Positions 11,912 to 61,770 of a DNA stretch of 64,000 nucleotides are shown piece by piece (the stretch's first letter is position 1; each line of letters opens with the position of its first letter). The notes under the pieces were generated by a model, which did no database searches, had not been told where the DNA came from, and was given only the letters and a program-made list of their open reading frames with translations. Origin of the DNA: Oscillospiraceae bacterium (GTDB taxonomy: Bacteria; Bacillota; Clostridia; Oscillospirales; Acutalibacteraceae); NCBI GenBank assembly GCA_009785335.1, contig WQWM01000005.1:24597-88596 (forward strand), in the 5' to 3' direction. Position numbers and translations under genes: made by a program.

Positions 11912-13174
11912 TTATTCGTGGTGGTCATCCATGAAGGATTGATAGGTGTCGGGCAGCTCTTCGGCAAAGGGGACGGGCTGCGGTGCGGGAGCAGCCGGGC
12001 GTTCCTCGGCGGAAAGTTCGGCGTTGAGCTCGCTTTCGATGCGCTCGCGCAGACGCTCGTTTTCCTCCAGCAGGGGAGCAAAACGGTCTTTGGATAGGCG
12101 ATAATTCATGCCGGCTTGCAGAGCTGTGAGCTCTTGACGGAAAGTGGTGAGCTGCTGGCGGATGTCGCCGGTGGTTTCGTCAAAGGCGGCAGCGATGGTT
12201 TCGACCTGATTGAGCAGGCTGGCCGACGCTTCATTCACATGGGTGATGTTGCGGCTGGTGGACTCGGAAATGAGCTGCGCGGTTTTCATGTTATTATCTA
12301 CATAAAGGTTTGCATAGTTGAACGAAGACAGCACCATGCCGCGCAACGAGCTTTCTTTGTTGCTGCCGGGCGCGGGAAGCGCTTGCTCGGCCGTTCTCTC
12401 GGCCGTGTTCAGCTGCATGCGCAGATGCTCACATTCGTCACCCAGTTCTTGGTTGTGGTGTTGAAGTGCCTGCAACTGGGCTTGGCATTGCTCGGCCTGC
12501 TGTGACAATGCCTCATAGTCACGCTGCAGAACAGCTCGCGCTTGCTCGGCATCATAAAGCTCGTCTTGTGCGGCATTCAATTGGTCTTGCAGCATTTGCA
12601 CCGCAGCGGTATTATCTTGCGGGATGGGTGCAGCTTTGGCAGCTTGCAGCTCTGCTTGGGTGTTGCTGAGCTCGGCTTGCAGCTTGGCAACTTGCTCGGC
12701 GGATTCCGCCAGTTTGTCGAGGTGATTTTGCAGGCTGTCGATTTGCGGAGCGGGCAGGGCATCACTTTCGCGCAATTCGGCCAGCAAAGACTCACGCGCG
12801 GCTTCTTCTTGCGCGACGCGTTGCTCAAGCTGGGTGATGGTTTGGTCACGCTGGGCCAGTTGACGATCAAGCTCGAAACAACGCGCCTTGAGCGCATTGA
12901 GCTCGGCGGTTTGCGCGGCATCGTTGCCGACCAACGGCGCGTTAGCACTTTGGTTCAGCTGTTCCTCAAGCGTTTGGCATTGGGTGGTGAGTTCGCCTTT
13001 TTCGCGCTCAAGGGTTTTGGCTTGGGTATACCAAGCGTTTTTGGCGGCCTCGAGCTCTTCGATTTGCGAGAGTTGCTCGGCGTGGGCTTGTTGGCGTTGG
13101 CCAATGAAGTTCATGACGTCTTCACGGTCGAAGCCGTGCTTGCCACGGGGACGGAAGGGGAATTCTTGGGGCAT
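11912..13174 (-). CDS. DivIVA-domain coiled-coil protein (420 aa)
   Basis: Start moved to MPQEFPFRPRGKHGFDREDVMNFI (ATG after AGGAGGTCC SD); track ORF 5' extension is repeat-encoded; long Q/E/A/L heptad-rich body. Confidence 0.7.
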   Translation of the reverse strand: MPQEFPFRPRGKHGFDREDVMNFIGQRQQAHAEQLSQIEELEAAKNAWYTQAKTLEREKGELTTQCQTLEEQLNQSANAPLVGNDAAQTAELNALKARCFELDRQLAQRDQTITQLEQRVAQEEAARESLLAELRESDALPAPQIDSLQNHLDKLAESAEQVAKLQAELSNTQAELQAAKAAPIPQDNTAAVQMLQDQLNAAQDELYDAEQARAVLQRDYEALSQQAEQCQAQLQALQHHNQELGDECEHLRMQLNTAERTAEQALPAPGSNKESSLRGMVLSSFNYANLYVDNNMKTAQLISESTSRNITHVNEASASLLNQVETIAAAFDETTGDIRQQLTTFRQELTALQAGMNYRLSKDRFAPLLEENERLRERIESELNAELSAEERPAAPAPQPVPFAEELPDTYQSFMDDHHE

Positions 13175-13227
13175 GGTGGGGGACCTCCTAGGGGATTTTG
13201 ATATTGTATGCATTTTATTTAATTTGA

Positions 13228-13312
13228 AGCTCGCCCCCTCAGTCACGCTACGCGTGCCAGCTCCCCCGCAAACGGTGGAGCCCTTGGCAACAGCCGAAAG
13301 GTTGAGTTGCAC
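13228..13312. repeat. Fam-F module (..GCCAGCTCCCC..GGAGCCCTTGGCAACAGCCGAAAGGTTGAGTT..)
   Basis: Copies also at ~14978-15056, ~42393-42472 and partial in dnaX 18618-18647. Confidence 0.8.
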
Positions 13313-13487
13313 TAGGGCACCCCTTTGGGGATTGAGCGAAACCCCAAACGCAGCAGTGCAATTGTTTAAAGGGCGACTTAGTGTGACTATTATATCATAT
13401 ATTTTGTCACTTGTCTATGGGTTTTGCGAAAAAAAAGCACATTTTGTCCGACGAGTACACAGTTTTTTAAAAAAATTGAAATTTTTG

Positions 13488-13516
13488 TTGACAAAGACGC
13501 GGAGTTATGCTATACT
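13488..13516 (+). promoter_or_regulatory. cassette 1 promoter TTGACA-17-TATACT
   Basis: Same TTTTTGTTGACAA context as cassettes 2 and 3. Confidence 0.65.
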
Positions 13517-13580
13517 ACTTACGTGCGATACTTGATGTTTGAAGGTATCGTAATACATTTTATAAAGGAGAAACAAACCT

Positions 13581-14318
13581 ATGGCGAAGAAAATCTTGGC
13601 GATTGCCCTGTCGCTGGCGTTCGTGTTGACGTTCGGCTTCATGGTAATGGCTGATTACGGCAATGTAAGCATTGTTGCTTCGAGCGGCACCGTAACTGGC
13701 GACACTGGCACTGCTCCAGATGCAGACAGCGAAACTGTTGATGCGGGCACCGAACCTGAAGACAGCGAATCTGTTGACGCAGGCACCGAACCTGAAGACA
13801 GCGAATCTGTTGACGCAGGCACCGAACCTGAAGACAGCGAAACTGCTGCTGAAGGCACCGTAGCTGGCGACAGCGAAACTGCTGCTGAAGGCACCGTAGC
13901 TGGCGACAGCGAAACTGCTGCTGAAGGCACCGAACCTGAAGACAGCGAAACAGGCGACGTGCTCGGCGGTTTCGACACCGAAACCGAAGATGACGAATCT
14001 GAAGTAGGCGGCGGCATCGACACCGAAACCGAAGATGACCAATCTGAAGTAGGCGGCATCGACACCGAAACCGGAGCTGGCGAAACAGAAACTGAAGTAG
14101 CAGACAGCGAAACAGAACTCGATGTGGAAACTGAAGTTTTGGGCGGCATCGACACCGAAACCGACACCGAGACTGAAATTGACACCGAAACTGAAGCAGG
14201 CGGCACAACCGGCGGCCACGATTGGGGCACCTTCCTGCGCGCTTGGGGCTGGAGCACTCTGGCTTCTTGGGTTGTAATGGCTATCACCATCGTTATCGCG
14301 TTCTTCGTAACCCGCTAA
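13581..14318 (+). CDS. secreted, C-terminally anchored acidic-repeat protein (245 aa), cassette 1
   Basis: Signal peptide MAKKILAIALSLAFVLTFGFMVMA; 12-aa D/E/T/S repeats; W-rich box FLRAWGWSTLASWV plus TM ending AFFVTR; own promoter. Confidence 0.75.
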   Translation: MAKKILAIALSLAFVLTFGFMVMADYGNVSIVASSGTVTGDTGTAPDADSETVDAGTEPEDSESVDAGTEPEDSESVDAGTEPEDSETAAEGTVAGDSETAAEGTVAGDSETAAEGTEPEDSETGDVLGGFDTETEDDESEVGGGIDTETEDDQSEVGGIDTETGAGETETEVADSETELDVETEVLGGIDTETDTETEIDTETEAGGTTGGHDWGTFLRAWGWSTLASWVVMAITIVIAFFVTR

Positions 14319-14361
14319 CTAACCGACCACTAACACTTAACTAACTAAGGAGTACACAATT

Positions 14362-14466
14362 ATGAGTACCACATTGAAAACTCTGTTGGGCGTAGTGGCT
14401 GGCATCACAACCGTTGCGGCGATGTTCTTTGTTCCCCGCTTGGTTCTGACATGCATCTTCTGCTAA
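14362..14466 (+). CDS. 34-aa hydrophobic peptide ending LTCIFC (cassette 1 partner)
   Basis: AAGGAG SD 9 nt upstream; MSTTLKTLLGVVAGITTVAAMFFVPRLVLTCIFC; near-identical paralogue at 15477 and fused copy at end of 14610 ORF; terminator follows. Confidence 0.6.
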   Translation: MSTTLKTLLGVVAGITTVAAMFFVPRLVLTCIFC

Positions 14467-14487
14467 ACCCAGACAAAACAACGAAAA

Positions 14488-14517
14488 CTGCGAGCTTTAG
14501 GGCTCGCGGTTTTTTTA
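14488..14517 (+). terminator. intrinsic terminator after cassette 1
   Basis: 8-bp GC stem CTGCGAGC/GCTCGCGG plus T7 run. Confidence 0.75.
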
Positions 14518-14541
14518 TTGCGTTTTGCTTGCAGATTTTTG

Positions 14542-14570
14542 TTGACAAGCCGAGGAAAATATGTTATACT
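14542..14570 (+). promoter_or_regulatory. cassette 2 promoter TTGACA-17-TATACT
   Basis: Hexamers read directly. Confidence 0.65.
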
Positions 14571-14609
14571 ACCTTTGGTGGATTAATATTTAAACTAAGG
14601 AGAATTATT

Positions 14610-14885
14610 ATGACTAAGAAGTTATTGGCAGCCGTGCTGGCGCTGACGATGGTGTTTGCGTTTGGCATGGTGGCAACAGCGGACACCGGTTATTTGTGTG
14701 AATGCCCTGGCGAGGCCCTCTGCATTGAAGCTTGCGATTGCGCCGAAACCGGCGAATGCATTTGCCCAGCACCCGACTGCGGCCGCAATTGGTGGCCAAT
14801 CATTCTGGGTGTGCTCGCAGGCATCGCAACCCTTGCGTCTATGTTTTTCATCACCCGCATTTGGCTGACCTGTATTTTCTGCTAA
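14610..14885 (+). CDS. secreted Cys-rich protein fused to LTCIFC-type anchor (91 aa), cassette 2
   Basis: ATG (MTKKLLAAVLALTMVFAFGMVATA) after AAGGAGAA SD inside track ORF 14451..14885; 10 Cys in CxC-rich ectodomain; C-terminus ILGVLAGIATLASMFFITRIWLTCIFC. Confidence 0.7.
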   Translation: MTKKLLAAVLALTMVFAFGMVATADTGYLCECPGEALCIEACDCAETGECICPAPDCGRNWWPIILGVLAGIATLASMFFITRIWLTCIFC

Positions 14886-14900
14886 ATTTTAACAAACAAA

Positions 14901-14930
14901 ACAGCTTGACCTTCGGGTTGAGCTGTTTTT
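14901..14930 (+). terminator. intrinsic terminator after cassette 2
   Basis: 11-bp stem (two G-U) ACAGCTTGACC/GGTTGAGCTGT, T-run. Confidence 0.7.
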
Positions 14931-14977
14931 ATGTAGTTGATTAACTTGAAAATTATTCTATTTGGATTGTTTTGCTT

Positions 14978-15056
14978 AACCCCCCCGCGCCAGCCTGCGA
15001 CGGCACCGCCCCCCTACAGGGGGCCCTTGGCAACAGCCGAAAGGTCGAGTTTCATC
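14978..15056. repeat. Fam-F module
   Basis: ..CCCCCCTACAGGGGGCCCTTGGCAACAGCCGAAAGGTCGAGTTTC. Confidence 0.75.
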
Positions 15057-15094
15057 CGAATTGGTTAATCCACTCTATTTCCAAGTTTTTTTGG

Positions 15095-15123
15095 TTGACA
15101 AGGCGAACCAAGTGTGTTAAACT
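15095..15123 (+). promoter_or_regulatory. cassette 3 promoter TTGACA-17-TAAACT
   Basis: Hexamers read directly. Confidence 0.55.
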
Positions 15124-15175
15124 TGCACTACGACGCTTTAGTGTTGTAAATTAACGTTGAAGGAGTAGAAAGTTT

Positions 15176-15448
15176 ATGACGAAAAAACTGTTGGCAATTG
15201 CACTTGCCGTGGTGTTTGCGCTTTCGCTTGGCATGGTGGCCGCAGCAAGTGATGGCTATGTTTGTGCATGCCCGCCCGATGCCGACTGCGCCGAGTGCAT
15301 CTGCGTGGATGGCGAGTGTGTTTGCCCGCCTGAGGAAGAAGGACGTAGTCCGTTGCAGTCGTTCCTGCGCAGCTGGGGCTGGAGCTCATTGGGCTCGTGG
15401 GTTGCCATGGCTGCGACCGTTGTGATTGCGTTTTTTGTAACCCGCTAA
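15176..15448 (+). CDS. secreted Cys-rich, C-terminally anchored protein (90 aa), cassette 3
   Basis: Signal peptide MTKKLLAIALAVVFALSLGMVAAA; GYVCACPPDADCAECICVDGECVCP; FLRSWGWSSLGSWV plus TM ending AFFVTR. Confidence 0.7.
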   Translation: MTKKLLAIALAVVFALSLGMVAAASDGYVCACPPDADCAECICVDGECVCPPEEEGRSPLQSFLRSWGWSSLGSWVAMAATVVIAFFVTR

Positions 15449-15476
15449 CCCGATTAAATGATAAGGAGAAAGTAGC

Positions 15477-15581
15477 ATGAATTCAACTTTAACGACCCTG
15501 TTAGGCGTAGCAGCCGGCATCACCACGATTGCAGCAACGTTCTTTATTCCCCGCTTGGTGCTGACCTGCATTTTCTGCTAG
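15477..15581 (+). CDS. 34-aa hydrophobic peptide ending LTCIFC (cassette 3 partner)
   Basis: AAGGAGAA SD 7 nt upstream; MNSTLTTLLGVAAGITTIAATFFIPRLVLTCIFC. Confidence 0.6.
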   Translation: MNSTLTTLLGVAAGITTIAATFFIPRLVLTCIFC

Positions 15582-15582
15582 C

Positions 15583-15630
15583 CGCCACCTGCGGTGGGGC
15601 GTGGTCGCTTCGCTGTGCTTTATTACAGTT
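15583..15630. repeat. Fam-D module (CACCTGCGGTGGGGC..CGCTTCGCTGTGCTTTATTA) abutting a stop codon
   Basis: Starts about 5 nt after the TAG of the 34-aa ORF. Confidence 0.8.
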
Positions 15631-15644
15631 CGCAGAAAACCAAA

Positions 15645-15677
15645 CCAGCTTGATCTTTGATCGGGCTGGTTTTTTTA
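15645..15677 (+). terminator. intrinsic terminator after cassette 3
   Basis: 11-bp stem CCAGCTTGATC/GATCGGGCTGG, T8 run. Confidence 0.75.
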
Positions 15678-15730
15678 TGTCTAAACCCGCGTGGAAATGC
15701 ATATAGTAGCCAAGAAAGCGAGGGGAGCAT

Positions 15731-16138
15731 ATGAGTGACCACGAAACGCGAAAAGCGCATCCCATTGATGAAAAAATCGAGCGCATGCTCAGCCATGCCG
15801 CCCGCGACTTCCGTGGGATGGAAAGATTTGAAGAACCCAAGCACCATCACTCGCGCGGGTGCGGATGCCACGGCTGCGGCGGGCGTTGCCCCAAGTGCTG
15901 CCCAACATGCGCAACCGGGCCAACGGGTCCGCCAGGGCCGCAGGGCTGCCCGGGCACTGCGGGGCCCACTGGAGTGACGGGGCCAACGGGCTCTGGTGCA
16001 GGCATAACCGGACCAACTGGGCCAACTGGCCAGTGCGACCAAGACCACGTGATGCTTGGTGAAGATGATTATCTTGCGCTGAGCGACGACGAAAAGCAGC
16101 ACCCGCAGAAGCATTGGATCGTTTACCCTAATAATTGA
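15731..16138 (+). CDS. collagen-like (GPT/GxY triplet) protein with Cys-rich knot (135 aa)
   Basis: GCGCHGCGGRCPKCCPTC, then about 19 uninterrupted Gxy triplets (GPTGPPGPQGCPGTAGPTGVTGPTG...), then DYLALSDDEK tail. Confidence 0.75.
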   Translation: MSDHETRKAHPIDEKIERMLSHAARDFRGMERFEEPKHHHSRGCGCHGCGGRCPKCCPTCATGPTGPPGPQGCPGTAGPTGVTGPTGSGAGITGPTGPTGQCDQDHVMLGEDDYLALSDDEKQHPQKHWIVYPNN

Positions 16139-16158
16139 CATATAAGGAGTGATTGACT

Positions 16159-16509
16159 ATGGCAAGCGCAGTATCTTATGAGTATCTACAATCGATTCGC
16201 GGAGCAACAGGCGGGGTGGCAACCCTAGGCAACGACGGCAAGGTGCCCGCATCTCAACTTCCGCCATTTCCCCCAAGCACCTACAAAGGCGTTTTTGCCA
16301 CTGCGGGCGACTTGAACACCGCGTATCCCACCGGTAACATCGGCGAGTATGCCTATGTGACGGCAGACGGCATGTATTACTACTGGAACGATGAGCTGGC
16401 ACTTTGGGTGCAAGAGGAAATTGAGGAAAATGACTACCTTGCGTTGAGCGATGCTGCCAAGGCCGCTGTGCCTTACTTGGTTGTGCCGAACACTGTGATC
16501 ACACCATAA
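16159..16509 (+). CDS. tail-fibre-like protein (116 aa)
   Basis: ATG 8 nt after AAGGAGTG SD; ATLGNDGKVPASQLP motif common in Firmicutes phage fibre proteins; DYLALSDAAK tail shared with 15731 ORF. Confidence 0.6.
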   Translation: MASAVSYEYLQSIRGATGGVATLGNDGKVPASQLPPFPPSTYKGVFATAGDLNTAYPTGNIGEYAYVTADGMYYYWNDELALWVQEEIEENDYLALSDAAKAAVPYLVVPNTVITP

Positions 16510-25360: not shown

Positions 25361-26188
25361 CTAGAACCCAAACACGCTAAAGCTGGTGAAGCCAGTGATG
25401 AGCGCGACAATGGCAATCAAAGCCAGGTGCGCAGGATAGAAGCCGTAGAATAGCCATTTTGAACGCTTGCCGCGTTCGCCATTGAAGTTTTTGATGAGCA
25501 GCGCAGCAATGCCACAAAACACTGGGAAGAACAGCGATGAGATGATTACATTTGTGTTGCCCAGCATGCCATAAAGCATGTCGCGCTGTGCTTGAGCGAA
25601 CTCGGCGGACATCATGGGGCCGTCGGCATAGAGGTAAGGCGTGACAGCAAGAATACCCCACACGGAAAAAGCAGCAATGACTAACCACAGCCCGCCAGCC
25701 ACAATACCGGGCACCAGCCGCCGTGCAGTTTCGTTTTTGATCACATGATACAACAGCACCACAATGGGGGCAAAGAATAGCCAATCGAAAAACAGTGCCA
25801 TGGGAATGGATACGATCACGAAGATGAGGACAAAGACTACTTTGAGGGCTGCTTTGTGTTTGAGTTTGTCATAGATGAACAGCAACAACAAGCTGACGAT
25901 GATGGCGAACATGATGTTGAAGCGGAATAGTCCCAACGATAGCATATAGAAGGGGATGGCGATGGTGCCGAAGATGGCCAGCCGAAGGATGTATCGCTTG
26001 AGATTGGACGTGTGCTTGTAGCCCTCGACGACAAAGTAGCCCAGAATGGGGAACGCCAGCCCACCGGCGGCATACATGGGGATGAGCAACCACAGGGGCA
26101 AGATATCTTGCCATGGATAAAGCGCATGGTGCAAGAACATGCCAATCATGGCGATCCATTTGAGTTGGTGTGCGTTGAATTTGAACAT
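25361..26188 (-). CDS. TraX family membrane protein (acyltransferase-like), copy 1
   Basis: 275 aa polytopic; MFKFNAHQLKWIAMIGMFLHH...VVEGYKHTSNLKRYILRL typical TraX N-terminus. Confidence 0.8.
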   Translation of the reverse strand: MFKFNAHQLKWIAMIGMFLHHALYPWQDILPLWLLIPMYAAGGLAFPILGYFVVEGYKHTSNLKRYILRLAIFGTIAIPFYMLSLGLFRFNIMFAIIVSLLLLFIYDKLKHKAALKVVFVLIFVIVSIPMALFFDWLFFAPIVVLLYHVIKNETARRLVPGIVAGGLWLVIAAFSVWGILAVTPYLYADGPMMSAEFAQAQRDMLYGMLGNTNVIISSLFFPVFCGIAALLIKNFNGERGKRSKWLFYGFYPAHLALIAIVALITGFTSFSVFGF

Positions 26189-26955
26189 AGATTATTTTTC
26201 CTTTCAGTTTGATAGTACCAAATCTCCACCGTTACACAGAACACAACGGTTGGAATCATGACAGTCAGCATCGGAGAAATCCGACCTTCGCCTTGCCAGA
26301 GCCCTGGAAAATTAGAGGCGACATGCATAATGAAAACAGGCACAAGAGAATGATATTTTTTAAAGAGCATCACAAACGCACGGTGCATGAAAAACCAGTT
26401 GACCAGCAACAACATAAAGGTGATATCCCACAGGGGTATGCCGCCTACTAATCGCGATGGAATGTGCGCTAAGGCAAACAACACTGCCCCCAGATTGATG
26501 GCCCAAGCATCGTTTTTGACTAAGCCATATAATCTGGTTTGAATGAAACCGACAAAGCTGATATATTCTCGCACAGCCCAAAGCATCACATTGGCTAACG
26601 CAAATAGGAAAGAACCTAAGGCGTTTAATATCCAGCCGCCTGTGATGCCTGGCACAACCCTGCTAAACAAAAAAATGGGTGCAAATAACAACCCAAGGCC
26701 AATTGCCGAAAGAAGCTTTTGCTTGTGCAGACCGATGGAAGCGAGGCTTTGTTTTCTGAACTTAACGATCGCAACCACAATTAAAATATCAATCACGCAG
26801 GTGATAGCAATGATAAGGTGCCAATCCTCTAAAATCTGCCCAGACCCGCCAGAGAAATGTGAATAGCTTAAACTCACCGCAAAATCGCGTAAGATGAAGT
26901 ATGCAAAATAGGCCAGTGCGATGATGGCATCTTTTTTGCTGTGCATAGCGGTCAT
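26146..26955 (-). CDS. CPBP family intramembrane metalloprotease (CAAX protease/Abi-type)
   Basis: Start at MTAMHSKK (GAAAGG SD); motif 1 variant VREYISFVGF, motif 2 VLFALAH, motif 3 HVASN; polytopic. Confidence 0.7.
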   Translation of the reverse strand: MTAMHSKKDAIIALAYFAYFILRDFAVSLSYSHFSGGSGQILEDWHLIIAITCVIDILIVVAIVKFRKQSLASIGLHKQKLLSAIGLGLLFAPIFLFSRVVPGITGGWILNALGSFLFALANVMLWAVREYISFVGFIQTRLYGLVKNDAWAINLGAVLFALAHIPSRLVGGIPLWDITFMLLLVNWFFMHRAFVMLFKKYHSLVPVFIMHVASNFPGLWQGEGRISPMLTVMIPTVVFCVTVEIWYYQTERKNNLCSNSTHTNSNGSP

Positions 26956-26969
26956 AAGCGTCAACCTTT

Positions 26970-27773
26970 CTAGACGAATGCGCGAATGAGCAACATGCCC
27001 AACCACAGCACCACAAAATGCACGGGATAAATAACATAAAACAGCCATTTCATGGTTTTGCTGCGCTTGCCACGCTCGCCGCTATAGCGCGTGAGCAGGA
27101 AGGCTGCAATCACAATGCCGATTTGGAAGGTCATCTGCACGGGCGAAAATTGGTAGTTCATCAATCGGGGCAGATTTACACCAGCCTCGGCAAACTGTGC
27201 TGCCAGCTCTGGTGTAGTCATTGCGGAGGTGAAGAAGCCGATGATCGTAAATATCACTGCGGCAAACACAGGCGGCACCACGCGGCGTGCGGTTTCGTTT
27301 TTGATGATGTGCGCCATGAGCACCATGGCCACGCCCACGAAGTACCATTCTAAGATAACAAGAGACAGCGGCGCAATGACGAGCACGAACAGGAGCCAAA
27401 ACAACACTTTGCTTTTCATTTTGTCATACATCGTGAGCACCAGCAAGCTTGCCACGATGTTAAACATGATGTTGAAGAAGGGATATAGCATGGGATTGCC
27501 GCCGCCCATGGGGATGGTAAGGACAAGGATGTGGAAGGGCAGCGCAAGCAGCCCAAACAACAGCACACGCAAGATGTATCGCTTGTGGTTGGAGGTATGC
27601 TTATAGCCTTCGGCGACGAAATAGGCCATGATGGGGAAGGTGAGGCCGCCGGCGATATACATGGGGAAGGCGAGCCAAATGGGGATGATTTCCCACCAGG
27701 CGATGACCATGTGGCTGGTGATCATGCCGATGACGGCCATGAGTTTGAGTTGGTTGGCGTTGAGTTTGAACAT
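26970..27773 (-). CDS. TraX family membrane protein, copy 2
   Basis: Start MFKLNANQLKLMAVIGM; roughly half identical by eye to copy 1 (FVAEGYKHTSNHKRYILRV, IKNETARR, GERGKRSK shared). Confidence 0.8.
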   Translation of the reverse strand: MFKLNANQLKLMAVIGMITSHMVIAWWEIIPIWLAFPMYIAGGLTFPIMAYFVAEGYKHTSNHKRYILRVLLFGLLALPFHILVLTIPMGGGNPMLYPFFNIMFNIVASLLVLTMYDKMKSKVLFWLLFVLVIAPLSLVILEWYFVGVAMVLMAHIIKNETARRVVPPVFAAVIFTIIGFFTSAMTTPELAAQFAEAGVNLPRLMNYQFSPVQMTFQIGIVIAAFLLTRYSGERGKRSKTMKWLFYVIYPVHFVVLWLGMLLIRAFV

Positions 27774-27983
27774 GAATGTAATTTCCTTTCGGTCATTGAT
27801 TATACATATAGTATAACGCACCTGCGGTGAGCAGTTCGCGCATATAAGTTTGATTAGCGCAAACTATGATGCACGCGTTATAGTATGTACCTAGTATAAC
27901 GCAAACTGGAGGGTTTTGCTAGCGATTTTGGGTGGAACTTTCGCAACTGGCGGTTGCGGGGCGGGGGAATGTGCGTAGACAAG

Positions 27984-42269: not shown

Positions 42270-42492
42270 TCGAGTGTGTCTTACAAAGATATAGCGTGCG
42301 ATAAGCGGCACTGCAAAGCAACGCCCTACAGGGAATGGGGCCAAAGGCCCTTGTTTCCCGCAGTCCTCGAATCAAAAAAACTTGATATACCAACCCCTCA
42401 GTCACCGCTTTCGCGGTGCCAGCTCCCCTACAGGGGAGCCCTTGGCAACAGCCGAAAGGTTGAGTTTCGTCAGGATCTCTCCTCCTACGCGC

Positions 42493-42708
42493 CTATTGGT
42501 TTACCGATGGATTGTCTGTGCGGCCAACAAGGTAGTCGATGGATACGTCGAAATAATCGGCAAGGGCGATGAGTTTATCATAGCCCGGCTTTTTGTTTGC
42601 GTATTCGTAAATTTGATAGGCGCTTTCGGCGATGCCTAGACCATCAGCAACGTTGCGCTGGGTTAGATTGCGTTCTTTGCGAAGCTGCCTGAGGCGTTGT
42701 GCGTGCAT
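42493..42708 (-). CDS. XRE family HTH transcriptional regulator (71 aa)
   Basis: Start MHAQRLRQLRKERNLTQRNVADGLGIAESAYQIYE; ..DYFDVSIDYLVGRTD. Confidence 0.8.
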   Translation of the reverse strand: MHAQRLRQLRKERNLTQRNVADGLGIAESAYQIYEYANKKPGYDKLIALADYFDVSIDYLVGRTDNPSVNQ

Positions 42709-60338: not shown

Positions 60339-60704
60339 ATGAAAAAACTGCTTGCGATACTCTTGGCGCTCAGCCTGCTGGCGAGCATCGGCATGGTGGC
60401 GGCAATGGCCAACTACCACGGTGTGCTTTGCGATTGCGACTATAATGTCGATGGCATGCTTTGCGAATGCGACCCTTGGCCGAATCCGGACCCAGACCCC
60501 AACAACCACGACCCGGGCCGCCAACCAGAACTGACCGTGGGCTGGTGGCGTGCAATTTTTGATGCCATCACGGACCCGCTGGGCACCGTGCGTGATGTCT
60601 CGTACACCGTGCGCGACTTTATTGTGTATACGATTCCCACCATACAGGATGTGTTCCGTTTTATTGGCAATGCCTTTGCTTGGATTGGCGGCCTGTTTAG
60701 CTAA
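60339..60704 (+). CDS. secreted Cys-rich protein, paralogue of cassette 2/3 proteins (121 aa)
   Basis: MKKLLAILLALSLLASIGMVAAMA; GVLCDCDYNVDGMLCECDPWP; W-rich box TVGWWRAIF; promoter TTGACG-17-TATACT. Confidence 0.65.
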   Translation: MKKLLAILLALSLLASIGMVAAMANYHGVLCDCDYNVDGMLCECDPWPNPDPDPNNHDPGRQPELTVGWWRAIFDAITDPLGTVRDVSYTVRDFIVYTIPTIQDVFRFIGNAFAWIGGLFS

Positions 60705-60783: not shown

Positions 60784-61770
60784 ATGAGGAAACTAGTGGC
60801 CATGCTGCTGGTGGTTTTGCTGCTGGCGGGTTTTGCGTTGGTCGTGCAAGCTGCACAAGAGGATGAGTTTGCTGCGGTGATTGCTGCGGTGCATGCCTTC
60901 AATCAAACACATGGCGGACAAGGGGAGTTGCAGGCAGAAATTCAGGGTTTTCCCGACTTCGCTTGGGTTGCGATTACTGGTGATGTGACCAGTGCCACGC
61001 GGGGCATTCAGCTGCCTCATGCACGTATTCGCTGGCAGGCTCGCCTGCACGGCAACTCGGCTGCTGGCGAAGCATTGATCACGGCGTACAATCTTGAGAT
61101 TGCACAAGGAGCTGATATTCTCACAAACGGCATTGCCGTACGTATGCTTGAGAATGAAACTTACGGTAGGTTAACGATGTGGGACGGCAAAATAGTTGGC
61201 GACATATACTCTGACCGTTGGATTTTGGCGCAAGGTGGCAATATTGCTGGCAGTTTGTTTGGTGGCCGCAGTGTGACGATTACAGGTGACGCAGTGGTGA
61301 ATGCTTATCAGGTTGTATTGTTTCGGGGTAGTTTTGAGGTGGAAGATAACGCGACTGTCTACATAGAAAATGTTGACGCGTTGCGCAACCGGCAAGTTTT
61401 GATTAAGCCGACTGCCACCACAAATTTTGAAGACCGCTTAACGGATTATATTCGCGCAGAAATTTTGGGCAATGCTGGTTGGATCCAATGGGTGACCAAA
61501 ACAATTGTGGGTAATGTGATCATCGAAGGGAACCAGCGGGTTGGTCCAACCACATTGGTTATTCCGGCCGATTCGTCGTTAGTTATTACTGGGAATCTTT
61601 ATCTTTACGGCGACGGCACGTTGGTGCTTGATGGCACGTTGCATGTTCAAGGTCGCGTGGTTTGGCGCGGATTAGCTAACGTTTCCGGTTCACGCTTATG
61701 GCAGTTGCAACCCGCATGGATACAATTCATCTTGCGATGGATATTCTTCGGCTGGATTTGGATGAGTTAG
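60784..61770 (+). CDS. secreted protein, possibly beta-helical, W-rich hydrophobic C-terminus (328 aa)
   Basis: Signal peptide MRKLVAMLLVVLLLAGFALVVQA; C-terminus WIQFILRWIFFGWIWMS. Confidence 0.55.
   Translation: MRKLVAMLLVVLLLAGFALVVQAAQEDEFAAVIAAVHAFNQTHGGQGELQAEIQGFPDFAWVAITGDVTSATRGIQLPHARIRWQARLHGNSAAGEALITAYNLEIAQGADILTNGIAVRMLENETYGRLTMWDGKIVGDIYSDRWILAQGGNIAGSLFGGRSVTITGDAVVNAYQVVLFRGSFEVEDNATVYIENVDALRNRQVLIKPTATTNFEDRLTDYIRAEILGNAGWIQWVTKTIVGNVIIEGNQRVGPTTLVIPADSSLVITGNLYLYGDGTLVLDGTLHVQGRVVWRGLANVSGSRLWQLQPAWIQFILRWIFFGWIWMS

Follow-up and report, generated by a model that had tools for sequence, protein, structure and literature searches.

A candidate tandem family of small acidic surface proteins with split or fused membrane anchors in uncultured termite-gut bacteria

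How should a locus be read in which three consecutive small transcription units each export a different acidic domain, and in which the same 34-residue peptide is fused to that domain in one unit and encoded by a separate gene directly behind it in the two others? This question is raised by positions 13488–15677 of a 64,000-nucleotide (nt) stretch of DNA (the window), taken from a 138-kb chromosomal contig in the metagenome-assembled genome (MAG; NCBI locus-tag prefix FWD06) of an uncultured member of the Oscillospiraceae. The explanation that we favour, with a probability of roughly 45%, is that the three cassettes encode a lineage-restricted tandem family of small type-I (bitopic) acidic surface membrane proteins built from exchangeable modules. 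The anchor of these proteins would be either split between two polypeptides or fused into one, with the two helices of the split form, here called A and P, pairing in the membrane.

Three self-contained cassettes

Each unit has a sigma-70-type promoter with an extended −10 element, a Shine–Dalgarno (SD) site AAGGAG 8–9 nt 5′ of each ATG, and a stable hairpin with a T-run after its last gene (pep1, u2 and pep3). We distinguish the encoded proteins by their C-termini. P-type proteins are free peptides of 31–34 residues; in F-type proteins the same P module follows, within one chain, a signal peptide and an acidic ectodomain (unit 2); and A-type proteins have a tail-less anchor, with a free peptide encoded just after the A-type gene in an A+P arrangement (units 1 and 3). 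The features are listed below, with promoter matches to consensus given out of 12 and terminator z-scores calculated against shuffles.

13488–13516 (+), unit 1 promoter: TTGACA-17-TGcTATACT, extended −10, 11/12, with TG
13581–14318 (+), u1: 245 residues, A-type, signal peptide, tail-less anchor
13724–14084 (+), u1 tandem repeats: 36-nt (12-residue) period, 6.3 copies (13724–13951); 45-nt period, 2.8 copies (13964–14084)
14362–14466 (+), pep1: 34 residues, P-type, MSTTLKTLLGVVAGITTVAAMFFVPRLVLTCIFC; 43 nt after u1
14483–14516 (+), unit 1 intrinsic terminator: −20.2 kcal/mol, z −4.65, then U7; kept in four genomes
14542–14570 (+), unit 2 promoter: 11/12, with TG
14610–14885 (+), u2: 91 residues, F-type, C-terminus ...FFITRIWLTCIFC
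14898–14931 (+), unit 2 intrinsic terminator: −19.5 kcal/mol, z −5.39
15095–15123 (+), unit 3 promoter: TTGACA-17-TAAACT, 10/12, with TG
15176–15448 (+), u3: 90 residues, A-type, tail-less anchor
15477–15581 (+), pep3: 34 residues, P-type, own SD, MNSTLTTLLGVAAGITTIAATFFIPRLVLTCIFC; 28 nt after u3
15642–15679 (+), unit 3 intrinsic terminator: −38.2 kcal/mol, z −3.09

The protein u1 comprises a Sec-type signal peptide, an ectodomain of about 190 residues of hyper-acidic repeat (net charge −64, 33% Asp+Glu, one Lys/Arg) and a C-terminal Trp-rich transmembrane (TM) helix, FLRAWGWSTLASWVVMAITIVIAFFVTR, that lacks a Cys tail. Downstream, pep1 has its own AAGGAG site and consists of a GxxxG-containing TM helix, the sequence FFVPR and the tail LVLTCIFC. 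In u2, a signal peptide and an acidic mini-ectodomain with eight Cys are joined directly to the P module (ILGVLAGIATLASMFFITRIWLTCIFC); in u3, a signal peptide and a seven-Cys acidic mini-ectodomain end in the Trp-rich TM helix FLRSWGWSSLGSWVAMAATVVIAFFVTR. An AlphaFold2 (AF2) model of u3 shows one continuous helix over residues 59–89 at low confidence (predicted local distance difference test score 62.5, predicted template-modelling score 0.29). In proteomic data, chymotryptic or undigested P peptides are predicted to yield the fragments TLLGVVAGITTVAAMFFVPR and LVLTCIFC.

A sequence-only reading of this stretch had already described three units with near-consensus promoters, strong SD sites and intrinsic terminators, 12-residue acidic repeats in unit 1, signal-peptide proteins with a Trp-rich TM helix followed 43 and 28 nt later by a 34-residue open reading frame (ORF) in units 1 and 3, and fusion of the same peptide sequence to the ectodomain in unit 2; our analysis reproduced all of these. 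Its Cys-motif consensus needs correction: Cys spacing in u2 and u3 is more variable, with four rather than two residues after the first CP. Joining of A and P by read-through or frameshifting was considered and ruled out, because the paired ORFs are offset by 781 and 301 nt (both 1 modulo 3), placing them in different frames, and the spacers contain stops in all frames.

Promoter-like sites number nine in the region, compared with 2.4 ± 1.6 in shuffles. The three unit promoters have the upstream context TTTTTGTTGACAA (units 1 and 2) or TTTTTTTGGTTGACAA (unit 3). Among the related loci introduced below, the unit 1 promoter keeps its position in L007 and L017 (both 12/12), and in the window, L007 and L017 the promoter of each unit scores 10–12/12 with an extended −10 element, including that of a stand-alone peptide gene in L007 (12/12). 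Judged from these expression signals, the cassette proteins are probably highly expressed.

A syntenic locus in termite-gut relatives

Exact-sequence, degenerate-pattern and profile searches recovered the same syntenic locus from at least six further genomes, all of them related uncultured Oscillospiraceae/Ruminococcaceae. The recovered loci form the groups L003/L004/L005/L010 (Co191P1_bin34), L006/L009 (Lab288P1_bin84), L007/L008, L011/L012/L017/L018/L019, L014/L015/L016, and L020. Both named MAGs, and all metagenomes whose codes could be identified (Co191P1; Lab288P1, which is 3300010162; Emb289P1, which is 3300009826), stem from the hindgut of higher termites, specifically its P1 compartment. 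The source paper places the MAGs in the Ruminococcaceae, [Eubacterium] coprostanoligenes group, and terms the P1 compartment 'highly alkaline' (PMC7024585).

Broader searches returned little else. A profile hidden Markov model of the family, run against 1.84 billion representative proteins, gave nine matches at E ≤ 1e−3: seven family members, one weak match within a 1,173-residue protein, and P0014, which is similar to the protein encoded at 60339 (see below) and is the weakest true match. A scan of 241 million metagenome records with one strict pattern, FF[IV][PT]R[LMG][VI]LTC, beyond whose reach lie CxxxC-type tails and distant P modules, found four true loci, all in termite-gut datasets; a further match, L013, was dismissed as a chance match. 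A W-box pattern found two loci in GTDB genomes, and a word-indexed protein search returned only self matches or close orthologues. No family match was present in viral contig collections, which therefore lend no support to a phage origin. As far as these searches show, the family is restricted to one small clade of uncultured termite-gut bacteria. The samples behind L015 (ERZ27257300) and L016 (SRR10512955), which hold the window's contig, also hold a second, more divergent carrier with a gene for a 173-residue Pro-rich A-type protein followed by a 31-residue peptide gene; at least two carrier lineages thus co-exist in one gut sample.

None of the cassette proteins had a significant match in Pfam, NCBIfam, PHROGs or PADLOC. 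Weak matches to YneF and PRK13682 (11–16 bits) were set aside as generic TM similarity, and Rfam yielded nothing credible. Comparison with PDB sequences by phmmer gave only E > 1, and Foldseek searches of PDB folds gave only E > 4, the latter carrying little weight given the low-confidence model used as query. An EGF-like or metallothionein-like identity for the Cys-rich domains found no support (Pfam hEGF E = 0.36 over 10 residues; no significant structure match), and a literature search on the motifs returned no matching paper. The claim that this is no described family thus stands: by the measure of these searches, it is an orphan family outside any described family or system.

The 31–34-residue ORFs as genes

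Whether the separate peptides are genes can be judged from how they have changed between relatives. Start codon, SD, length and stop codon of pep1, pep3, the stand-alone peptides and the 31-residue variants are all kept across six genomes. Synonymous differences reach 17 over about 26 synonymous sites. Comparison of pep3 with its Co191 counterpart gave 15.5 synonymous differences over 26.5 sites and 4.5 non-synonymous differences over 75.5 sites, a ratio of non-synonymous to synonymous substitution rates (dN/dS) of 0.055; the corresponding value for pep1 is 0.14. The analogous ratio of uncorrected proportions (pN/pS) ranges from 0 to 0.38 for pep1, pep3 and stand-alone peptides (4–5 genomes), being 0–0.22 for pep1 (four genomes) and 0.10–0.38 for pep3 at a dS of about 1, and is 0.24 for the 31-residue variants. 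Independent gene callers annotate the small peptides as genes, and pep1 is annotated in public assemblies. Conservation of the 34-residue ORFs in relatives had been named beforehand as a check on their reality, and on this comparative evidence the 31–34-residue ORFs are real genes under purifying selection.

In every genome there are open antisense ORFs opposite the peptides, with a lowish pN/pS in one frame. We rejected these shadow ORFs as genes because they lack SD sites, because they occupy the frame that shares its wobble positions with the sense frame, and because the sense frame continues into signal-peptide proteins in F-types.

The DNA of pep1 shows a further peculiarity. Together with 19 nt of the preceding spacer (GACCACTAACACTTAACTA), pep1 is almost invariant in four genomes (window positions 14325–14466). 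Where its amino acids are invariant, 23 of 29 codons are identical across three genomes, compared with 35–52% in eight other genes and pep3, and its dS is about 4–5 times below that of pep3. This pattern suggests an additional nucleotide-level constraint on pep1, which might stem from the structure of the mRNA, from a translation enhancer or an overlapping RNA, or from gene conversion.

The P module and its Cys tail

Ten P/F modules align without gaps and share the invariant residues G10, G14, F22, F23, R26, L29, T30, C31, F33 and C34. At their core lies a TM helix whose outer half carries an invariant GxxxG (LG[VI]xxGI) and which is followed, at the inner boundary, by FFxxR. After the Arg comes a hydrophobic tail of 8–9 residues with two Cys that lie three or four residues apart, in one of two subtypes: R.VLTC[IVM]FC, or RL[WML]GCxxFC with an occasional additional terminal Arg. 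G10 and G14 are present in 10/10 modules and also in the 31-residue variants (LGILAGI), providing a small-xxx-small motif within the membrane span. Given the cleavable signal peptide of F-type proteins and the positive-inside rule, we infer an N-out topology in which the ectodomain lies outside and the Cys tail is cytoplasmic. Most P peptides, except the pep1 type, begin MN-x-[ST], a formal resemblance to the N-x-S/T sequon.

Two kinds of known membrane component resemble this arrangement: TM helices that associate through GxxxG, of which glycophorin A is the type, and small TM accessory peptides such as MgrB, CydX and KdpF. The P module likewise is a single TM helix with a G-x-x-x-G flanked by β-branched residues (LGVVAGITT), and here too a tiny peptide is encoded beside, and co-transcribed with, a membrane protein. 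However, there is no sequence homology to any of them; the partner here is a minimal bitopic protein whose TM helix is paralogous to the peptide, and the peptide itself, which has a conserved di-Cys tail, is elsewhere joined to ectodomains. The association itself is putative.

The final C-I-F-C formally fits the C-a-a-X box of eukaryotic proteins processed by Rce1, and all three tails of the window end in this way. A CPBP-family, Rce1-like protease gene (26146–27048) lies in the window and is syntenic in L007. The sequence-only reading had raised a link between the two, labelled as pure speculation; on that view the terminal CIFC would be a CaaX-like lipidation and processing signal handled by this protease. 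Across the family the resemblance dissolves: other tails end GCWMFCR, GCITFCR, GCIIFC or GCMIFC, so that in these the first Cys is found at −7 or −5 and an Arg can come last, and because a Cys at −4 is not conserved across the variants there is no strict CaaX box. The CPBP gene, moreover, lies about 10.6 kb from the cassettes, past the housekeeping genes dnaX, recR and dnaN. No prenyltransferase was found among the Pfam-annotated neighbours (whole genomes were not searched), and we know of no bacterial CaaX prenyltransferase. We regard CaaX processing as barely credible.

A probable tail-less anchor rather than a sorting signal

The C-terminus of A-type proteins is a hydrophobic span of 22 residues with Arg on either side, as in R-A-WGWSTLASWVVMAITIVIAFFV-TR. 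The inner half of this span can be aligned with the P/F helix as far as FF[VI]TR, and its outer half has WGW[SA][TS]LG[SA]W in place of GxxxG. This alignment makes the TM helix of A-type proteins a derivative of the P/F helix that is rich in Trp and has no tail. The proteins end variously in TR, QR or SQSRA, and some lack a terminal basic residue altogether (...AFFIVG, ...AFWVS).

A secreted protein that ends in a conserved motif, a hydrophobic helix and, in most cases, an Arg also recalls the tripartite sorting signals of the LPXTG/sortase, PEP-CTERM/exosortase, GlyGly-CTERM/rhombosortase and MYXO-CTERM/CPBP-type systems. The A-type C-terminus could then be a new sorting signal that is cleaved by a dedicated membrane protease or transpeptidase, with P acting as a cofactor or acceptor or being unrelated, and the CPBP/Rce1-like intramembrane protease gene 6.6–11 kb from the cassettes in the window and L007 could supply such an enzyme. 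Several features make this improbable in our estimation. No NCBIfam or Pfam sorting-domain model matches even at E ≤ 1; the motif is itself part of the 22-residue hydrophobic span instead of preceding it; and the basic end is missing from some members. Only two candidate substrates exist per genome, no sortase- or exosortase-type Pfam domain occurs within ±10 kb of any locus, and dnaX, recR and dnaN separate the CPBP gene from the cassettes.

Split and fused anchors are one indel apart

If the A-type helix is indeed a tail-less relative of the P module, one may ask whether the two belong together. All 11 A-type genes, from six genomes, are followed by a P gene 28–46 nt downstream, and F-type genes never are; the co-occurrence of anchor and peptide that the sequence-only reading had proposed to test is therefore borne out for 11/11 tail-less anchor genes.

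The 13-Cys type of ectodomain links the two architectures. It is split (A+P) in L017 and fused (F) in L014 and L020; the ectodomains are 58–68% identical between the split and fused forms, compared with 22–36% identity to 7-Cys forms. The DNA of the two forms is collinear except for one block of about 135 nt that comprises the W-box TM helix, stop codon, spacer, SD and start codon, which places the split and fused architectures one indel apart. On this collinearity, the two forms are interconvertible by a single indel. The 13-Cys ectodomain never occurs without a P module, which is either part of the same protein or encoded by the following gene.

P modules also occur by themselves. Stand-alone P genes lie between units 1 and 2 in L006 (503–607) and L007 (9355–9459), encoding MNATIATILGIITGISVAAASFFIPRLILTCIFC and MNVSLVTILGIITGIAVAAASFFIPRLVLTCIFC, respectively; the L007 gene has a 12/12 consensus promoter with TG and its own terminator. 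Such genes are absent from the window and L003.

These stand-alone genes favour a rival account, in which A and P are co-transcribed paralogues that do not pair physically: P would be an autonomous small membrane protein, for example a GxxxG homo-oligomer, the cassettes would stem from partial tandem duplication of the anchor, and A would work alone. The homology of the A and P TM helices is what a duplication predicts, and because all loci are syntenic the pairing could be inherited rather than selected. Against this, the A–P adjacency, the SD and the short spacer survive a dS of about 1 in every genome and in both units. Furthermore, the ectodomain joins the P module directly when the A anchor block is absent, suggesting that the ectodomain needs the P module either in cis or in trans. 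We consider the account without pairing unlikely, though of real weight.

Variable, strongly acidic ectodomains

The ectodomains differ wholly between genomes. That of u1 is replaced in orthologues by unrelated acidic or Asn-rich repeats, as follows.

u1 ectodomain, window: (TEPEDSESVDAG)n
u1 ectodomain, L003: Ala/Cys-rich region, then (ND)n
u1 ectodomain, L006: (TNDV)n
u1 ectodomain, L007: (PTNDE)n
u1 ectodomain, L014: IPNPDY-type repeats
u1 ectodomain, L017: Cys/Asp-rich region, then (GN)n

The u2 and u3 types have a mini-domain with 7, 8 or 13 Cys; orthologues of u2 were found in L003, L006, L007, L014 and L020. Acidity is common to all 16 of the 16 ectodomains examined, with net charges of −4 to −64, 10–35% Asp+Glu and only 0–4 Lys/Arg. 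The core of the sequence-only reading, self-contained cassettes that place a variable secreted ectodomain on a conserved anchor, therefore holds in the related genomes.

Tandem small cassettes with their own promoters and terminators, a fast-diversifying exported part, a small hydrophobic ORF immediately downstream, and GxxxG and Trp-rich helices are also what would be expected of antagonism and immunity modules. The units would then encode Sec-exported bacteriocin-like peptides with a TM immunity peptide, or the P peptides would be membrane peptides like type I toxins. Class II bacteriocins are cationic and released. Here the exported parts have a strong negative charge and a complete TM anchor, and the one in unit 1 is an acidic repeat of about 190 residues. 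The same sequence that would serve as immunity protein or toxin is fused to an exported protein in F-types, and perfect constitutive promoters drive the stand-alone P genes. Pfam, NCBIfam and PADLOC gave no transporter, immunity or defence matches; as regards type I toxins, we found no convincing antisense promoter over pep1 or pep3 and no Rfam match. A role in antagonism is, in our judgement, very improbable.

Neighbouring genes and a remote relative

The cassettes are flanked by a minus-strand gene for a DivIVA-like coiled-coil protein on one side and a collagen-like gene on the other, with the housekeeping genes argG, rpmB, pepP, dnaX, ybaB, recR and dnaN nearby. Further features of the window are as follows.

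11912–13174 (−), DivIVA-like gene: 420-residue coiled-coil protein with a DivIVA-like N-terminus (FRPRGKHGFDREDVMNFI), divergent from unit 1; own promoter at 13389–13417, 11/12 match
13215–13345, 14955–15075 and 42370–42500, copies of a GC-rich intergenic repeat element
15731–16138, collagen-like gene: Gly-X-Thr repeats and a conserved Cys-rich N-terminal domain (GCGCHGCGGRCPKCCPTC), without signal peptide
16153–16509, gene for a 118-residue protein after the collagen-like gene: tail-fibre-like LGNDGKVPASQLP motif
25361–27821 (−), a CPBP/Rce1-like gene clustered with two genes for TraX-family membrane proteins
60339–60704 (+), small secreted Cys-containing protein: remote relative, not a member of the anchor/peptide family
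60784–61770, beside the 60339 gene: secreted 328-residue protein without Pfam hits

In every locus whose upstream flank was recovered, the DivIVA-like gene is conserved ahead of the cassettes. The collagen-like gene and its 118-residue neighbour, which have PHROG tail-fibre and minor-tail matches (about 5e−8 to 1e−5), lie directly 3′ of the cassettes in six of seven genome groups, that is, wherever downstream sequence was recovered; in the Co191 genome the two are fused into one 527-residue protein with a long collagen repeat. We dropped a link between the cassettes and these collagen-like and tail-fibre-like genes, given that the neighbouring proteins have no signal peptide and the cassettes are transcribed as units of their own; synteny alone may account for the adjacency. 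A cluster similar to the CPBP/TraX cluster is syntenic in L007, and it is probably unrelated to the cassettes.

The GC-rich element, of about 90–110 nt with the invariant core CCCTTGGCAACAGCCGAAAGGT[TC]GAGTT, occurs three times in the window against an expectation of zero. It flanks units 1 and 3, is similar in kind to repetitive extragenic palindromic (REP) or miniature inverted-repeat transposable (MITE) elements, and has no Rfam match. L014 has a GC-rich intergenic stretch at the corresponding place.

The gene at 60339 had been taken for a fourth Cys-rich paralogue, a view that we do not uphold. It shares only the signal peptide and first CxC motifs, scores 26 bits against the family profile, lacks the W-box, TM helix, P module and Cys tail, and has an amphipathic C-terminus, and on this basis is at best a remote relative of the family. 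Its promoter, TTGACG-17-TGTTATACT, resembles those of the cassettes.

Discussion

The reading that we favour, paired or fused anchors beneath an acidic surface domain, can be put as a sequence of steps. The signal peptide would export the ectodomain, which the TM helix would then tether to the cytoplasmic membrane at its outer face. From split cassettes, the co-transcribed P peptide would insert N-out/C-in and pack against the A helix, its GxxxG facing the small-residue/Trp outer half of that helix, so that an A+P pair would reproduce in trans what F-type proteins hold in cis. The di-Cys tails, placed at the cytoplasmic membrane interface, could cluster assemblies or link them to a cytoplasmic partner, for instance through a shared metal ion or another thiol contact. 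The result would be a dense, Lys/Arg-free and strongly anionic layer at the membrane surface, composed of Asp/Glu/Asn/Thr repeats and Cys-rich mini-domains.

Our preferred guess for the function of the Cys tail is a metal or thiol clasp. Inter-subunit Cys clasps are familiar from the CxxC zinc hook of Rad50 and the zinc clasp between CD4/CD8 and Lck. As in those proteins, a two-Cys motif is by itself an incomplete metal site, and oligomerization would gather several copies; the comparison is pure analogy, and it differs in that the spacing of the tail varies between CxxC and CxxxC and that the tail is hydrophobic and membrane-adjacent.

Several observations weigh against paired anchors or against a functional reading of the acidic layer. 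Because the genomes are all closely related and share a syntenic locus, the 11/11 pairing does not represent 11 independent events and may reflect shared ancestry. The stand-alone P genes with perfect promoters in L006 and L007 indicate that P also has a role where no A gene is adjacent. An A–P pair offers only two Cys, so that a metal site would need higher-order assembly; Cys counts in the ectodomains are mostly odd (7 or 13, sometimes 8); and the AF2 model of u3 is weak. Finally, the secreted proteins of this organism are acidic in general (isoelectric points of 4.1–5.4 for several in the window), and ectodomain acidity may in part be a general adaptation to the habitat rather than a matter of function.

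That habitat provides a possible context. An anionic layer fits organisms from the P1 gut compartment, at a pH above 10. In alkaliphilic Bacillaceae, acidic or Asn-rich N-terminal segments of membrane-bound cytochrome c have been proposed to act as an 'H+-capacitor' (PMC12457358), and a hydrophobic 59-residue protein, BpOF4_01690, is alkaliphile-specific, small proteins of this kind having been suggested to promote alkaliphily (PMC6120979). The likeness lies in membrane-tethered Asp/Glu/Asn/Thr-rich segments on the outer face, in small hydrophobic proteins, in genes that are monocistronic or in short operons, and in highly alkaline habitats. There is, however, no homology; the carriers here are anaerobic Clostridia rather than respiring Bacillaceae, the published mechanism is itself hypothetical, and the link is one of analogy and habitat only. 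Going one step further, the free di-Cys peptide might be a universal docking helix that draws tail-less ectodomain carriers, by GxxxG/Trp helix packing, into high-copy assemblies clasped on the cytoplasmic side by a metal or thiol link. The resulting polyanionic layer, rich in Asp/Glu/Asn and thiolate, would trap protons, cations or poorly soluble metals and so enable these monoderm anaerobes to live at pH 11–12 in P1. This is a long shot. Were it true, the layer would do with protein what acidic wall polymers and 'H+-capacitor' segments are proposed to do in alkaliphilic bacilli, and it would rest on a previously unknown split-anchor principle.

The importance of the finding is limited by the confinement of the family, as far as searched, to one small clade of uncultured termite-gut bacteria, and its mechanism is inferred throughout. 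If the reading of paired or fused anchors is right, the locus would contribute clean bacterial micro-proteins of 31–34 residues with comparative support, a class usually discarded by annotation pipelines and ORF cut-offs. It would likewise offer a natural membrane anchor whose split and fused versions are one indel apart, ready-made for studies of TM helix–helix recognition. For the organisms themselves, the cassettes may be a means by which the envelope of uncultured anaerobes is adapted to a habitat that ranks among the most alkaline known in biology.

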